Shown here: piece by piece, positions 3,128-34,835 of the stretch | How the letters are laid out: the number at the start of each line of letters is the position of its first letter | Numbering within the stretch: the first letter of the stretch is position 1 | Sequence record: MK759854 | From: Shigella phage DS8 | Length of the DNA: 44,605 bases | Direction: 5' to 3' (one strand) | Position numbers and translations under genes: made by a program | Notes under the pieces: generated by a model | The model's input: only the letters and a program-made list of their open reading frames with translations | Databases searched by the model: none | What the model was told of the DNA's origin: nothing

Positions 3128-3172
3128 CAATCTACACCACAAAATAATCACTGTCAACACCTGTGATATAAT
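3128..3172 (+). promoter_or_regulatory. putative promoter for major tail gene: motif CAATCTACACCAC plus extended -10 TGATATAAT
   Basis: Conserved motif at 3128-3140; TGATATAAT at 3164-3172; ATG at 3209 with GGAG RBS. Confidence 0.4.
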
Positions 3173-24396: not shown

Positions 24397-24419
24397 GTGG
24401 GGCAACCGACCTGCCCCAC
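24397..24419. promoter_or_regulatory. second copy of GTGGGGCA-N7-TGCCCCAC, followed by extra CCCCACG half-sites
   Basis: Identical arms; additional ACCTGCCCCACG (24421-24432) and TTTACCCCACG (24441-24451). Confidence 0.5.
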
Positions 24420-24474
24420 GACCTGCCCCACGGGCAAAAATTTACCCCACGAGCACGTTTTTAACGCATTACTG

Positions 24475-24503
24475 TTGACGTAGAATCATCGTTGATGTAG
24501 ATT
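24475..24503 (+). promoter_or_regulatory. putative sigma70-type early rightward promoter (TTGACG-N17-TAGATT) built on two motif copies
   Basis: TTGACG 24475-24480, 17-nt spacer, TAGATT 24498-24503; RBS GAGGGTGAAGAG and ATG 24534 downstream. Confidence 0.4.
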
Positions 24504-26757: not shown

Positions 26758-27204
26758 ATGGCTAATCCAAACCCTGTCATGAAATTTTCCTCTGAATACC
26801 AGCCTGCTGGTAGAGGATTAAGCTACAGAAACAGGCTTATTGAAGCATTAAAGCGCTGCGGGCTTGGAGAAGAGGAGTTCCTTGACGCATTCATCAGAAC
26901 CTCAATCAAGATGACTGAGGAAAACCAGACTCAAGGCGTACAAATGCTGAAGGAAATATTCCTGCGCATCAGCCCAGTGCAAAAAAGCATGGCACCTCCG
27001 GTTAATTTTAAATACCGCAAAGATGCTACTCCAGTTGAGCAGATAGAGGACGTCATTCAATCTGTCTCCAGTGGTGAGCTTCCAATTGACGTGGCGTCTC
27101 AGGTTGTATCTATGATTAAGGTTGGCCTTGACGTGAAAGAATTAACCGAACTCGCCGCTCGCCTTGAGCGACTGGAAAAATTACTGGAGCAGCGGAATGC
27201 GTGA
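26758..27204 (+). CDS. putative terminase small subunit
   Basis: 148 aa directly upstream of the large terminase; N-terminal MANPNP...PAGRG resembles small-terminase N-termini; C-terminal coiled-coil-like segment. Confidence 0.5.
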   Translation: MANPNPVMKFSSEYQPAGRGLSYRNRLIEALKRCGLGEEEFLDAFIRTSIKMTEENQTQGVQMLKEIFLRISPVQKSMAPPVNFKYRKDATPVEQIEDVIQSVSSGELPIDVASQVVSMIKVGLDVKELTELAARLERLEKLLEQRNA

Positions 27205-27355
27205 TGTTGTTACGTGGTGCTTTGTGGTATCTATCGCTATGAGCATGATTAGCGTCATTATGCCATCTGGAGATTTTGCTGGTAACATATTCGCATTTAT
27301 GTTCTGGGTATCTGGATGCGTTATCGCTTGGGGTCGGATTCACTATGGCTCGTAA
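27197..27355 (+). CDS. small hydrophobic protein overlapping TerS/TerL junction, hypothetical
   Basis: 52-aa ORF; ATG overlaps TerS stop; GGAG RBS; may not be expressed. Confidence 0.25.
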   Translation: MRDVVTWCFVVSIAMSMISVIMPSGDFAGNIFAFMFWVSGCVIAWGRIHYGS

Positions 27356-28769
27356 ACGCCTCTCCGCGCTGGCAATCGAAAAGCTGGAGGCGCAGATTGA
27401 TGATGCAATGACAGATGTCGCTGAGTCTGCCACCTTTGGTATCTGCGACATGCAGAAGAACGTCATTAAGCGGTTAAGGATGACTGCTACTGGCGTTGAT
27501 GATGTGACCAATGCAACCACTCATGCCGACCACCTGATTCCAGCAAAACTGGAGCGCCTGCTTTATCCGAAGCGTTTTAAGTTTGTCTACGGTGGGCGTG
27601 GGTCAGGGAAGACGAGAACGATTATCACTATCCTTACTGAGCGAGCAAGGTTTCGACCTGACCGCTTTGCCTGCTTTCGTGAGATTCAGCAATCCATTGA
27701 AGACTCAAGTTATCAGGAATTGTGCGACGAAATAGCGCGCAAGGGTGAATCGGCAGAGTTTCGCGTTATCAACAACGAGATAACGCACAAGAAGACAAAA
27801 GCGAAGTTTCGCTTCAAGGGGCTGTATCGCAATCAGACAACCGTTAAGGGGTTTGCTGGCATTACCGTCGGTTGGGTAGAGGAAGCGGAGAACGTCAGCC
27901 AGACGAGCTGGGATATTCTGGTTCCCACCATCCGCGCCGCTAATTCCGAGTTGTGGTGCTCATTCAACCCCAATAAGGAAACAGACCCAACATGGAAAAA
28001 CTGGATTGCCCCATATCACTCACAGATGGTTGATGGCATATTCGAAAACGATGAAATTCTGATTATCGAATGTAACTATTCAGACAACCCGTGGTTCTGG
28101 GACACTCCACTGCCGTCCGCTATGGAGCAAATAAAGCGAACTGATTACGACCGTTATCGCTGGATTTGGATGGGAGCATTCAACAAGCGCAGCGACGAGC
28201 AGGTCTTTGGCGGTAAGTGGCACATTGATAACTTTGAGGTTAAGTCTGAATGGCATGGGCCATACTTCGGGATGGACTTCGGGTTTTCCACAGATCCTAC
28301 CGCAATGGTAGAGGTTTACATCGAAGAGTTACCAGGTGGGCGGCGCAACATTTATATTAATCGCGAATACGGAAAGGTCGGGCTTGAGATTACCGATACG
28401 CCAGCCGCAATGGAGCAATCATTCCCTATGGCTAAACGTGCGCGATGGTATGCCGACTGTGCTCGTCCTGAAACCATCAGCCACATCAAGCGTTCTGGCT
28501 TCGATATTCACCCGTGCACGAAATGGCCAGGTAGCGTTGAGGATGGCGTAACGTGGTTGCGCGGCTGCGACAGCATCATCATCCATGAGCGATGCAAGGA
28601 AATGCAGAATGAGGCGGCAATGTACAGCTACAAGGTTGATAAGCTGACAGGGAATGTGCTGACTGATATTGTCGATGCATATAACCATTACTGGGATGCT
28701 GTTCGCTACGCACTCAATGACCACATCGTACAGCGCGGCAGTGGAATGCTAATACGGCGCAGGCGATAA
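27345..28769 (+). CDS. terminase large subunit
   Basis: Walker A KFVYGGRGSGKT, Walker B-like ITVGWVEEAE, C-terminal nuclease-type motifs (MDFGFSTDPTAMV, HYWDAVRYAL); ATG 27345 in frame with a longer TTG-initiated ORF. Confidence 0.9.
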   Translation: MARKRLSALAIEKLEAQIDDAMTDVAESATFGICDMQKNVIKRLRMTATGVDDVTNATTHADHLIPAKLERLLYPKRFKFVYGGRGSGKTRTIITILTERARFRPDRFACFREIQQSIEDSSYQELCDEIARKGESAEFRVINNEITHKKTKAKFRFKGLYRNQTTVKGFAGITVGWVEEAENVSQTSWDILVPTIRAANSELWCSFNPNKETDPTWKNWIAPYHSQMVDGIFENDEILIIECNYSDNPWFWDTPLPSAMEQIKRTDYDRYRWIWMGAFNKRSDEQVFGGKWHIDNFEVKSEWHGPYFGMDFGFSTDPTAMVEVYIEELPGGRRNIYINREYGKVGLEITDTPAAMEQSFPMAKRARWYADCARPETISHIKRSGFDIHPCTKWPGSVEDGVTWLRGCDSIIIHERCKEMQNEAAMYSYKVDKLTGNVLTDIVDAYNHYWDAVRYALNDHIVQRGSGMLIRRRR

Positions 28770-28785
28770 ATCTGCATCACCACAC

Positions 28786-28825
28786 TTGACCAATCTACAC
28801 CGAGCGCATAGTATAATCTACATCA
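28786..28825 (+). promoter_or_regulatory. putative promoter of the TerL-portal island: two motif copies and TATAAT
   Basis: CAATCTACACCG (28791-28802), TATAAT (28812-28817), AATCTACATCA (28815-28825). Confidence 0.4.
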
Positions 28826-28845
28826 GGCTTATCGGAGATGTCACT

Positions 28846-29052
28846 ATGCGCAGCTATGCAGGATTCACACAGGAGGAAAAAGAGCAGGTTTATTCGCTGG
28901 CAAGGGCTGGCGTGCCTGACGAGGTGATTTGCCGTCGGTATGATATCGACGAGGATTTCCTGCTGCGCGTTATTGATGATGTCTTCGTTAACCTGCAAGA
29001 GAAGCGCGGATATAAAGGCATCTGCTGCAAGAATGATTTTTTGAGAGGGTGA
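28846..29052 (+). CDS. hypothetical protein, possible helix-turn-helix
   Basis: 68-aa ORF from ATG 28846 with GGAG RBS; segment LARAGVPDEVICRRYDIDEDFL looks HTH-like. Confidence 0.4.
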   Translation: MRSYAGFTQEEKEQVYSLARAGVPDEVICRRYDIDEDFLLRVIDDVFVNLQEKRGYKGICCKNDFLRG

Positions 29053-29063
29053 TGTTATGAGTA

Positions 29064-29336
29064 TTGAACTATTTAAAAAAAGGTCAGATTATACCAAAGC
29101 GCATCGGTGGATTACATGTTCATCGTAAAGCCCGTCACAGATTGGTATTTGGCTGTGATGTGCTAATTGATGGCAGTAATTGGATTGCCGTGCCAAAGAC
29201 TGGTGAATCAATGGTTATTGCTAAGAAGTTGGGTATTCGCAGAAATAACGGAACTTATCAAAGTGTAGAAGCTGCATTTAAAGACATCCACTTTAATGCC
29301 AACAAGATTGACTATGTTGTCAAAACTTGCCGGTGA
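29064..29336 (+). CDS. hypothetical protein (start unresolved; possible frameshift at A7 run)
   Basis: 90-aa ORF begins at TTG; a well-placed ATG at 29057 (GAGGG RBS) is in another frame and joins this ORF across the A7 run at 29075-29081. Confidence 0.35.
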   Translation: MNYLKKGQIIPKRIGGLHVHRKARHRLVFGCDVLIDGSNWIAVPKTGESMVIAKKLGIRRNNGTYQSVEAAFKDIHFNANKIDYVVKTCR

Positions 29337-29356
29337 TGAAATTAACTGGTGGTGAG

Positions 29357-29770
29357 TTAATCATGTTCAGAAATAAACTAAAGAAAATAATCCGCGACAC
29401 TGCGGATAAGAAATACACCAAAAAGATTGATATATCATTCATTGACGGCACTGGCCTGTACAATCACGCCTGTCACCTGAATGCGGTAAACCGGGCGAGA
29501 GATGGAAGTTCGTGCGCAGTGGTAGAGGTTGTGGTGATTGATGATAAGTCGGTGATTGCGCATTACATCAACATGCAATGTGACGGCACGTACATCGACT
29601 ACACGCTTGGCTGGCACTGGTCTGGTGCTGATTACCGATTTGTGCGCTACGTTCCATTTACCGAATGGGCTGATATTGCGGGCGCGCTAAACAGGCTTAA
29701 ATCAGAACTGTGCAGGCCGGTAGCGAAATGGCAGAAGTTTTTAATGGTAACTGATGGTGAACTTTGTTGA
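29357..29770 (+). CDS. hypothetical protein
   Basis: ATG 29357 with GGTGGTGAG RBS inside the longer ORF 29327-29770. Confidence 0.4.
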   Translation, partial: LIMFRNKLKKIIRDTADKKYTKKIDISFIDGTGLYNHACHLNAVNRARDGSSCAVVEVVVIDDKSVIAHYINMQCDGTYIDYTLGWHWSGADYRFVRYVPFTEWADIAGALNRLKSELCRPVAKWQKFLMVTDGELC

Positions 29771-29776
29771 GGTGAT

Positions 29777-29968
29777 GTGATGATTATTGATGAAACGAAA
29801 AATTGCTATGAACTGCAAGTTAGTCATAGCTTTAGTGATTACCCTATCATGATGCTTACTTCATTCCGTGAAGGTGATGATGTTAACTCTATCGGCATTG
29901 ACAAACACCAAGCCGCGCAGCTAATAGAAGTGCTGCAACGCTGGGTTGATGGCGAGGAGATTGAGTAA
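29777..29968 (+). CDS. hypothetical protein
   Basis: 63-aa ORF; GAGGTGA RBS; TAATG coupling to next gene. Confidence 0.4.
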   Translation: MMIIDETKNCYELQVSHSFSDYPIMMLTSFREGDDVNSIGIDKHQAAQLIEVLQRWVDGEEIE

Positions 29969-30153
29969 TGAGCATTTACTTTATTCACGCTGAAGTTCTT
30001 GATGGCGATAAGGTTGTAACGAAGGCTTGCGCCATTGCGTGCTTCGACAATGCTAATGATGCCTTCGATTGGTTTATGGATAGCCAAGAGGTTGCAAAAT
30101 ATAAGAATAAAGGGCGCGATGTGGTAATAGATAAACTGGAAAAGGTGGAATGA
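29968..30153 (+). CDS. hypothetical protein
   Basis: 61-aa ORF; ATGA coupling to next gene. Confidence 0.4.
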   Translation: MSIYFIHAEVLDGDKVVTKACAIACFDNANDAFDWFMDSQEVAKYKNKGRDVVIDKLEKVE

Positions 30154-30395
30154 TGGCAGCCACAATTCTTGCTCTTGTCGTTACAGTGTTCTTTGTTTAT
30201 ATCCTGATAAGAAATAAGTTTGTCTATATTGAGCGCGGCAGATTTATAAACTACTTTTATGAGGAAGACCCAGAAGGGTATGCAGCAGGAAAGCGATTCC
30301 ATAAGGCGTTACCAAGTTACGACGAGATGCTGTGGAGATTCTGGGTATGGCGTTTATCAAAATTCTATCCAGCGTACAGAAATCGCAACAAGTGA
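30150..30395 (+). CDS. small membrane protein (N-terminal TM), hypothetical
   Basis: 81 aa; hydrophobic segment ATILALVVTVFFVYILI followed by a basic/aromatic tail. Confidence 0.4.
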   Translation: MMAATILALVVTVFFVYILIRNKFVYIERGRFINYFYEEDPEGYAAGKRFHKALPSYDEMLWRFWVWRLSKFYPAYRNRNK

Positions 30396-30439
30396 CCATG
30401 ATATAATCCCCTTAATTGGGGATTTTTTATTGGTGACAT

Positions 30440-31852
30440 ATGTCCAAAATTGATGCATTAAACGCCTACATTCGCGACCGCGTGGCGAACAATAACCGGG
30501 CAATTCAGCAGCAACGGCTTTGCGCTGGCGGGAAGAATCTCGACCAGAAGCACGATCGCCTCTGGACGGAATGCGGATACCCACAGGAAATCACTGCCGA
30601 GATGTTCCGTTATGCCTATGAGCGACATCCAGCAGCCGCTGCTGGCATTAACCGAATTATTAATAAATGCTGGCAGAAATACCCTGAGGTGGTCGAAGAT
30701 GGCGAGGATGATAAGAACTCAACGCCGTGGGAGCTGTCCATCAACGACATGATGAAGCGCGCATACCCATTCATCAAGGAAGCCGACAAGCGCAACGCCA
30801 TCAACCGCTACTCTGCTGTCATCCTGCAAATCCGTGATGGCAAGCAATGGAGTGAGCCGGTAGACATCACCAAAACCCGCCGCATTAAAGATAAATCCAT
30901 CGTTCGCTTTATTCCTGTATGGGAGGAGCAGCTCCGCGTCAGCGCATGGAATAACGATGAAACAAGTGAAGACTACGGCATGCCTGAGATGTACGAATAT
31001 CAGGAAAGCGCCGTTGAGGACTTCGACAGCGATGGCAAGCCTGAACGTTCCGTGCAGATTCACCCTGACCGCATCATCATTCTGGCTGAGGGTAGTTTTG
31101 ACGGCAGCATGTTCAGTGGCATTCCGATGCTGCGCGCTGGCTACAACAGCCTTATCGACATGGCTAAGGTTTCAGGCAGTTCTGCGGAAGGTTTCCTGAA
31201 GAATGCAAGCCGCCAACTGGCAGTTAACTACACGAAGGACAACGTAACGCCAGCAAGCCTCGCCCAGTCGATGGGTGTCGATATCGAAGAGCTAACTGAC
31301 ATCATGAATGAGAACATTGAGGCGCTAAACTCAGGCATCGACGCCGCTATGTTCACAATGGGAGCTGATGCAAAAGTTCTCGCTGTGACGCCAGCCGACC
31401 CGAAACCAACATGGGAAGTGGCTGCCAACCAGTTCGCTGCATCTATGGCGCTTCCGTTCACGGTCATTTTTGGGCAGCAGACCGGACGCCTTGCGAGCGA
31501 TGAGGACAAGATGCAGGAGGCAATGACAGCCAAGCAGCGCCGAGAAACATGGGTTGATTATGTCATCTCAATGTTTGTTGAGCGCATGATTCAGTTCGGT
31601 ATTGTCGATAAAGCACCGGCAAATGGTTACAAGGTTAAGTGGGATGACCTGCTGGCACCATCAGAACTGGATAAGGCGGAGTTGCTGGCTAAACTCGCCA
31701 CTGCGAACAAGTCATTTTTTGATGCTGGTCAATCTGCGTTGCTGACTGTCGATGAGGCTCGCGGCATGGTTGGTATGGAGCCGATTAAACTTGACGAAAG
31801 CTATCGCGAAGACACTCCACCGGAAGATAAAAATGAAGATATTCCGGTTTAA
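30440..31852 (+). CDS. portal protein
   Basis: 470-aa ORF between the large terminase block and a Mu F-like head morphogenesis gene; size and position typical of portals. Confidence 0.7.
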
Positions 31853-33140: not shown

Positions 33141-33199
33141 GGTTGATGTAGATACTATGTACCACCGCTCAATCTACGTCAATACCGTTGTGATAAAAT
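33141..33199 (+). promoter_or_regulatory. lysis-cassette promoter: inverted motif pair and extended -10 TGATAAAAT
   Basis: GGTTGATGTAGATA (33141-33154) and CAATCTACGTCAAT (33170-33183) form an inverted pair; TGATAAAAT at 33191-33199; motif-to--10 spacing matches the site at 44426-44455. Confidence 0.45.
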
Positions 33200-34803: not shown

Positions 34804-34835
34804 TAAAAAAAGCCCCATAATGGGGCTTGTGTTTA
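34804..34835. terminator. bidirectional terminator (ends the leftward 35.9-34.9 kb operon)
   Basis: Hairpin AGCCCCA-TAA-TGGGGCT with AAAAAAA upstream (a T-run on the minus strand). Confidence 0.55.

Follow-up and report, generated by a model that had tools for sequence, protein, structure and literature searches.

A probable lineage-wide, moron-like accessory-gene locus between the large terminase and portal genes of Shigella phage DS8

Introduction

In Shigella phage DS8 the gene of the large terminase subunit (TerL) and the portal gene are separated by a stretch holding six small genes, named g1 to g6 here. A first-pass annotation, prepared from the letters of the sequence, had described this stretch as an island with its own promoter inserted between two genes that are usually adjacent, and had pointed to a run of seven A in the second gene at which two reading frames meet. 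The locus therefore raises the question whether the six genes are an insertion peculiar to DS8 or belong to something that the phage shares with its relatives, and, within it, whether the A run reflects a mutation, a sequencing error or programmed slippage.

The stretch is read here as DS8's version of a lineage-wide, moron-like accessory-gene locus between TerL and portal, with a probability of about 0.75. In the proposed organization the unit would open with a conserved promoter of the sigma-70 type (TTGACC, 17 nt, TAGTAT), with which two copies of the phage-wide ATCTAC motif overlap. It would continue with g1, a core gene for a protein of 68 amino acids (aa) with a helix-turn-helix (HTH) fold under strong purifying selection, and with a variable array of small AT-richer genes that are present or absent depending on the relative, keep their order and are represented here by g2 to g6. 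A conserved intrinsic terminator, the 5′ arm of which overlaps an extended −10 promoter, would close the unit, so that transcripts from upstream would stop at the terminator and transcripts from the restart promoter would read on into portal. The genes g2 to g6 would be cargo that the phage can do without, and their targets would most likely be the host or competing phages.

Materials and methods

The sequence studied was one strand of Shigella phage DS8 (MK759854), and the window referred to below is the whole of this siphovirus sequence (about 44.6 kb). Nearest to it in the databases are the Escherichia phages S192, C1 and swi2, the Salmonella phages Vi II-E1, Skate and IME207 and the BASEL phages Bas77-81, to which the window is about 84-92% identical at the nucleotide level with patchy coverage; in GenBank some of them are assigned to Macdonaldcampvirus, Swiduovirus or Shuimuvirus. 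The relatives are O-antigen-dependent coliphages and Salmonella phages, a group that has been little studied (PMC11990801). For the comparison of the locus 39 related loci were taken from IMG/VR with the portal protein as query, and the 33 spanning TerL to portal were scored. These 33 loci together with the window are called the 34 loci, and the Skatevirus/Macdonaldcampvirus/Swiduovirus group is called the cluster.

The locus in related phages

The six small genes annotated earlier were found, at 28846-30395 between the end of TerL at 28769 and the start of portal at 30440. In the 33 related loci and the window, TerL and portal are never adjacent; they are 535-2390 nt apart, with 75-1385 nt before g1 and 96-1596 nt after it, and g1 is present in all 33 scored relatives. 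The array after g1 is highly variable and ranges from 0 to about 9 small genes (g2 to g6 in the window), for which about 27 recurrent open reading frame (ORF) families were counted, some of them overlapping-frame artefacts. Almost every one of the 34 loci has an arrangement of its own, and the order is colinear wherever genes are present. The window has the g1-g6 order of phage swi2 minus one gene. Each of the genes g2 to g6 is missing from many related loci, and in two of these (L022 and L030) the terminator follows directly after g1 with no gene between. Since the locus is present in all relatives, it is a lineage-wide locus and not an insertion peculiar to DS8; on this comparison the lineage inherited it from its ancestor, and fluidity is confined to its cargo.

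The statement that TerL and portal are usually adjacent thus holds for phage T1, in which only a terminator lies between the two genes, and fails in DS8's own lineage, in which the spacing given above was found in 33 of 33 loci. With all 33 loci occupied by g1 and intervening DNA, the insertion drawn in the first-pass annotation did not withstand the comparison. Nor did the six genes turn out to be structural genes conserved in all relatives, the outcome which it had set against an insertion: g2 to g6 are patchy and two arrays are empty. Its view of the stretch as a separate unit was borne out, as the guanine plus cytosine (GC) content is 43% in the island against 50% in TerL and 52% in portal, a promoter-like site precedes the genes and a terminator was found in addition.

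It is improbable that the small genes code for conserved head-assembly or packaging accessory proteins, as their place within the morphogenesis module might lead one to expect. The genes g2 to g6 are too often missing from relatives for this, with the array after g1 empty in two loci, a gene for a 148-aa protein already occupies the usual small-terminase position upstream of TerL, and none of the six proteins is similar to known virion or assembly proteins; an assembly or packaging role for g1 alone is left open. A recent DS8-specific insertion of the six genes, splitting a formerly adjacent TerL-portal pair, can practically be dismissed: the adjacency in T1 and an island GC below that of its flanks would fit it, but the same terminator and g1 occur in every relative examined and the promoter block in most, swi2 carries the same g1-g6 order plus one gene, and at third codon positions g1 has diverged to a degree similar to TerL and portal of the same allele type, so that it looks as old as the core genes.

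Further variation was observed to the left of g1. In many relatives a second variable segment, about 330-1385 nt long, separates the stop of TerL from the g1 promoter (in locus L001, 1691-2048); swi2 carries two small minus-strand genes there, and the window has a minimal form of 76 nt. TerL occurs in two deeply diverged allele types, the last 100 codons of which are either 96-100% or about 75% identical to the window in amino acids, and for the second type the third-position identity drops to about 0.45-0.49 (window versus L002, L003, L019 and L023-L032). The TerL types combine freely with portal types that are 97-100%, 71-76% and 61-63% identical, and g1 stays at 96% or above. These combinations amount to strong mosaicism around the locus.

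Gene layout between TerL and portal

The features of the stretch are listed in Table 1. All six genes lie on the plus strand and match PHROG families, the functions of which are unknown (E 1e-19 to 1e-47), and none of the six proteins matched a Pfam family above threshold. The genes g1 to g6 are tightly packed, with short junctions also where they do not overlap. ORFs on the opposite strand over g4 to g6 were treated as spurious because they are without PHROG-type support.

Table 1. Features of the TerL-portal stretch of phage DS8 (positions in the window).
Feature	Position	Strand	Evidence and remarks
TerL (left flank)	27345-28769	+	Pfam Terminase_3, E 1e-36; Terminase_3C, E 7e-12; 474 aa, the length of TerL in relatives
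Promoter-like region (predicted)	28786-28825	+	−35 TTGACC 28786-28791; 17-nt spacer; −10 TAGTAT 28809-28814; TATAAT 28812-28817
g1, 68 aa, HTH fold	28846-29052	+	PHROG family match
g2, 92 aa once corrected to A6, basic, all-beta	29057/29064-29336	+	phrog_29107, E 1e-35 on the corrected protein
A7 run, frameshift site in g2	29075-29081	+	A6 in relatives
g3, 135 aa	29363-29770	+	phrog_6596
g4, 62 aa, acidic	29780-29968	+	phrog_13627, E 3e-19
g5, 61 aa, acidic	29968-30153	+	phrog_26739, E 1e-22; start overlaps g4 stop (TAATG)
g6, 81 aa, N-terminal transmembrane helix	30150-30395	+	phrog_25285, E 5e-47; start overlaps g5 stop (ATGA)
Composite boundary element (predicted)	30399-30430	+	Extended −10 TGATATAAT 30399-30407; stem-loop 30405-30424; T run 30425-30430
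Portal (right flank)	30440-31852	+	Pfam Phage_portal_3, E 2e-20

The conserved gene just upstream of TerL (26758-27204, 148 aa, phrog_9747, no Pfam match) is unannotated in the relatives. Its position and a C-terminal coiled-coil-like sequence suggest that it probably codes for the small terminase.

The core gene g1

The protein encoded by g1 is 91-100% identical across phages in which TerL is about 75% identical (C-terminal stretch compared). Codon identity is 0.96-1.00 at positions 1 and 2 versus 0.76-0.87 at position 3, and TerL and portal alleles of the same type have similar values at position 3. This pattern indicates long-standing purifying selection and not a recent sweep.

In the test for a three-helix HTH fold the g1 protein came out as a three-helix bundle of the sigma region 4/LuxR-like kind. 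It had no Pfam match and no significant PDB sequence-profile match, so membership of such a family was not found at the level of sequence profiles. Residues 36-53 (EDFLLRVIDDVFVNLQEK) form the helix at the recognition position; its acidity (pI 4.1) is atypical for a helix that reads DNA, so that DNA binding by g1 is not assured. The protein thus shares its fold with the sigma-70 region 4 and LuxR-GerE HTH domains and differs from them in having neither a sequence-level match nor a basic or polar recognition helix. It was also considered as the small terminase and rejected, since the conserved 148-aa gene is already found at that position.

The boundary before portal

In all 34 loci the stretch ends in the same way, with CATGnTATAAT, a hairpin, T6-7, ATTGGTGACAT and the ATG of portal. 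At least five different stem sequences were found, all of which keep the pairing (e.g. CCCC/GGGG, CCCTC/GAGGG and CCCATC/GATGGG) and all of which fold into hairpins of 7-10 bp with −11 to −15 kcal/mol, that of the window having −11 kcal/mol. This compensatory variation supports a real structure. The stem starts with the three bases that end the −10 hexamer; TGnTATAAT as a whole matches the consensus of an extended −10. About 11 hairpins of the window look like terminators; this one alone has an overlapping −10, and none was found between g1 and g6.

From this arrangement we infer that transcripts from the g1 promoter terminate at the hairpin, and that starts about 7 nt after the −10 fall inside it and give transcripts running into portal. 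As restart transcripts would be without the 5′ arm, the hairpin could not form in them and they would read on. The composite element may in this way act as a terminate-and-restart insulator.

The promoter-like region and the ATCTAC motif

The two motif copies and the TATAAT that had been seen ahead of the genes were found again: AATCTACA lies at 28792-28799 and at 28815, the second copy within AATCTACATCA (28815-28825). The elements stood at the positions annotated earlier; position 28786, the left edge given to the island, is the start of the TTGACC hexamer (and a TTG start of the ORF finder), and gene 1 begins at ATG 28846. Six copies of AATCTACA occur in the window versus 1.4 expected, and the longer form ATCTACRTCA has eight exact copies versus 0.16 expected, plus two ATCTACACC variants.

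About 60 nt upstream of g1, comprising TTGACC, both motif copies and TAGTAT, are nearly invariant in about 34 relatives. The TATAAT is 20 nt from TTGACC; at the standard distance of 17 nt stands TAGTAT, and this hexamer is retained in many relatives that read TATATC in place of TATAAT. A divergent clade, in which g1 is 54% identical, has unrelated sequence at this place, yet 2-3 copies of ATCTACG. A link between g1 and the motif was sought by co-variation; as both g1 clades keep the same motif core, this did not discriminate. Of the island's own promoter, a conserved promoter-like site is what stands, and its activity is predicted.

The second gene and its A7 run

The reading frames of g2 are arranged as had been reported. 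ATG 29057, with GAGAGGG six nt upstream, is one nucleotide out of frame with the long ORF, which it meets at the A7 run, and opens 23 codons only (to 29128); the rest of g2 lies in the +1 frame from 29064/29082 to 29336. When one A is deleted, the result is an intact protein of 92 aa. The run is A6 and the ATG in frame in five close DNA relatives, whose sequence is TTTAAAAAAGG; in a distant homologue it is TTTAAGAAAGG (AAGAAA). In an exact-pattern scan for A6 to A8 only A6 was found in viral contigs, and the same scan of metagenomes gave no match. About 45 close protein clusters of g2 are full length (92-93 aa). In 29 family members, with identities as low as 34%, the N-terminal sequence FKKGQxxPKR varies little or not at all; it spans the A run. 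Since its Phe codon lies upstream of the run, the true start of g2 is ATG 29057, and the extra A breaks the gene. TTG 29064 was considered as a compensatory start and rejected: the same frame positions hold GTG GTG in relatives, so that a start codon there is nothing unusual, and in a product begun at the TTG the nearly invariant Phe would be replaced.

By its polarity against the relatives, the A7 is a +1 insertion in an A6 tract and not programmed or conserved recoding. We lean somewhat towards a genuine recent mutation in a dispensable gene; g2 is missing from most relatives, which makes a real, near-neutral inactivating mutation plausible. A sequencing or assembly artefact, with g2 intact in the phage, is a possible explanation that we hold tentatively. 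A homopolymer indel is a classic type of error, all relatives have A6 and the corrected protein is a normal member of its family. Against it, of 88 homopolymer runs of at least 5 nt that could be aligned to at least three relatives, this A7 alone has a length unique to the window (1/88), and a frame-split screen against relatives found no breaks in other conserved genes and flagged only non-coding or spurious ORFs, although this screen is a weak test because it is blind to short fragments such as the 8-codon head of g2. The assembly thus does not appear to be generally homopolymer-error-prone, and in a gene that most relatives lack true inactivation would be cheap.

Programmed recoding of g2 is very improbable. 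The zero frame reads AAA AAA AGG, a slippery sequence for tRNA-Lys on which a P-site AAA can re-pair one base forward (+1 slip on AAA_AAA_A, or transcriptional slippage on A7), with AGG as the zero-frame A-site codon and a well-placed GAGAGGG before the ATG; such a sequence is necessary and not sufficient. AGG is rare in E. coli, and CUU-AGG-C of Ty1 is a known +1 shift site. With the programmed +1 sites of prfB and Ty1 the g2 site shares a re-pairable P-site codon followed by the rare AGG in the zero frame. It differs from them in that it is not conserved, every relative having A6 or AAGAAA in a plain in-frame ORF, in that there is no stimulatory element and the shift would come only 8 codons after the start, and in that an expansion of A6 by one base explains it, a gain expected in a slip-prone run from ordinary mutation or sequencing error. 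Of the earlier suggestion of either a homopolymer indel or programmed slippage, the former is therefore retained. The gene is best annotated as frameshifted, or its base re-checked, and neither called from the TTG nor described as recoded.

A second A7 run of the window (34805-34811) lies in the A/T tract of a bidirectional terminator (AAAAAAAGCCCCATAATGGGGC); relatives mostly have A6 there and at least one (L041) has A7. This run is non-coding and hence uninformative on frame.

For the corrected g2 protein the AlphaFold2 (AF2) model has a predicted local distance difference test (pLDDT) score of 92 and no PDB neighbour. Homologues of g2 with 77-80% nucleotide identity were found in 10 records of about 72-kb Escherichia phages outside the cluster (St11Ph5, Bas96, KKP 3715 and others), from which it follows that the gene moves between unrelated phage families.

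The genes g3 to g6

Homologues of g3 are mostly stand-alone proteins of 135 aa, with 237 cluster representatives at E<=1e-3 (50% identity clusters). In 71 diverse sequences C37, N40, H67 and G83 are invariant, and N34, D79 and T81 occur in at least 90%. The Cys, His and Asp residues follow each other in the order of papain-like thiol enzymes; this pattern suggests a thiol enzyme, and the family may be an undescribed one. No significant Pfam or PDB sequence-profile match was found for g3 itself, and a Pfam scan of 71 g3 relatives gave scattered chance hits only, among which SpvD (E 0.095) was not relied on. One relative encodes, on a contig of 46,886 nt, a protein of 114 aa (P0082) in which g2 up to about residue 45 is fused to the C-terminal 80 residues of g3; this in-frame deletion over the g2/g3 junction shows how cassettes decay.

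For g4 a sub-threshold hit to Pfam DUF6967 was obtained, and its ORF family (F1) is present in most of the 34 loci (20 ORFs). The commonest cassette is g5 with 23 ORFs in the 34 loci, and an identical g5 protein is encoded on two other phage contigs with different neighbouring genes. Together with the presence of g2 in the phages of about 72 kb, this points to horizontal exchange. The membrane protein with which the island had been said to end was recovered as g6, the N-terminal hydrophobic helix of which reaches a Kyte-Doolittle mean over 19 residues of 2.73 at residues 2-20; where present, g6 is the last gene before the terminator. In an exact-protein look-up the window's g3 and g6 were missing from the public collection.

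Comparison with known systems

Morons are known from the lambdoid phages HK97 and HK022 (PMC3594210). Like these, the DS8 locus is an extra unit with a (predicted) promoter and terminator between late morphogenesis genes, with deviant base composition and horizontally exchanged, dispensable content. Taken singly, the features of a moron were found for the predicted terminator and the base composition, and patchy presence was found for g2 to g6 and not for g1; TTGACC-17-TAGTAT is conserved in about 34 relatives, with matches not enriched over shuffles. In contrast to morons, the locus is a multi-gene array at one fixed place and not a single inserted gene, and its first gene is a core gene of the lineage. 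Moreover, the cluster consists of isolates without a recognised lysogeny module, so that the rationale of expression from a repressed prophage is not obviously applicable. The region had no match in the E. coli genome collection, and hence no prophage copy exists in that collection. The fully annotated relative E1 has no coding sequence (CDS) labelled integrase or repressor, and no screen of the window for lysogeny functions was made; the E1 annotation includes ParB-like, anti-repressor and MarR-type genes.

A further likeness is to the hyperplastic regions and PeSL promoter-terminator elements of T4-like phages (PMC2839356, PMC4122927). These regions also hold variable small genes of unknown function between core blocks and have a composite of promoter and stem-loop at the boundary. 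PeSLs are many repeats that flank individual cassettes and were proposed to drive shuffling, whereas the DS8 element is single and placed at the right edge, with a −10 hexamer that precedes and overlaps the hairpin. Repeated PeSL-like composite elements were sought in the window and none was found, nor any separating the g1-g6 cassettes.

Several points weigh against a moron-like accessory locus. Since all loci have g1 and its sequence is highly constrained, the unit cannot be called purely accessory; some of it may have a core role in regulation or assembly. The −10 matches the consensus at 4/6 positions, the region has 10 promoter-like matches against 7.6 in shuffled sequence and is thus not enriched in them, and the putative promoter, terminator and restart promoter are consensus matches with conservation as their backing. 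Sampling of the lineage is uneven, the loci coming largely from one wastewater metagenome series and from isolate genomes, and the choice between mutation and sequencing error in g2 is a matter of likelihood.

In an alternative that appears unlikely, the TerL-portal locus would be an organised expression site and not a passive store of surplus genes, in which the sigma-4-like g1 would regulate a phage-wide ATCTACRTCA regulon and the composite element would insulate swappable cargo from the structural operon. As part of the same proposal g1, conserved more tightly than TerL and portal, would repress its own promoter, on which two motif copies lie over the −35 and −10, and would act as well at the extended −10 promoters with a motif copy that serve the tail, lysis and other operons. 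In a lesser variant of it the A7 would be real and slippage would yield a low, tunable level of g2.

As a moron-like accessory locus, the preferred reading, the stretch would be an ordinary accessory region with by-products of modest interest, namely g1, the ATCTACRTCA motif, the composite terminator/promoter, the g3 family and the g2 fold. The main value lies in annotation and engineering, and the current understanding of phage biology is unchanged. For engineering, the locus offers a natural cargo slot, since the 0 to about 1.6 kb found after g1 in relatives marks a tolerated site with its own (predicted) promoter and terminator. Leads for further work are a universal small HTH-fold protein, a promoter-associated 10-mer at about 2 per 10 kb across the cluster, a widespread unnamed Cys-His-Asp family (g3) and a confidently predicted small beta fold without solved neighbour (g2).

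Distribution of the 10-mer in the window

Sites of the 10-mer ATCTACRTCA and its variants are located at 3130, 5159, 17236, 24502(-), 28793, 28816, 33153(-), 33172, 35956 and 44428. They appear to be placed in gaps between long ORFs, most of them upstream of operons. At 3130 and 5159 the 10-mer is followed by a conserved GTCAACAC block and the extended −10 TGATATAAT, and at 33172 and 44428 it lies 22 nt before TGnTAAAAT. The 10-mer is absent from T1; in relatives it is conserved at the same sites, with the density given above in 71 related loci of both g1 clades.

Downstream of the motif at 24502, at about 24400-24470 on the minus strand, repeated GTGGGGC/CGTGGGG units (cgtggggtaaatttttgcccgtggggcaggtcgtggggc) were observed. 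They resemble a repeat annotated in phage E1 as GTGGGGCAACCAACCTGCCCCACGA and could be a replication or regulatory element.

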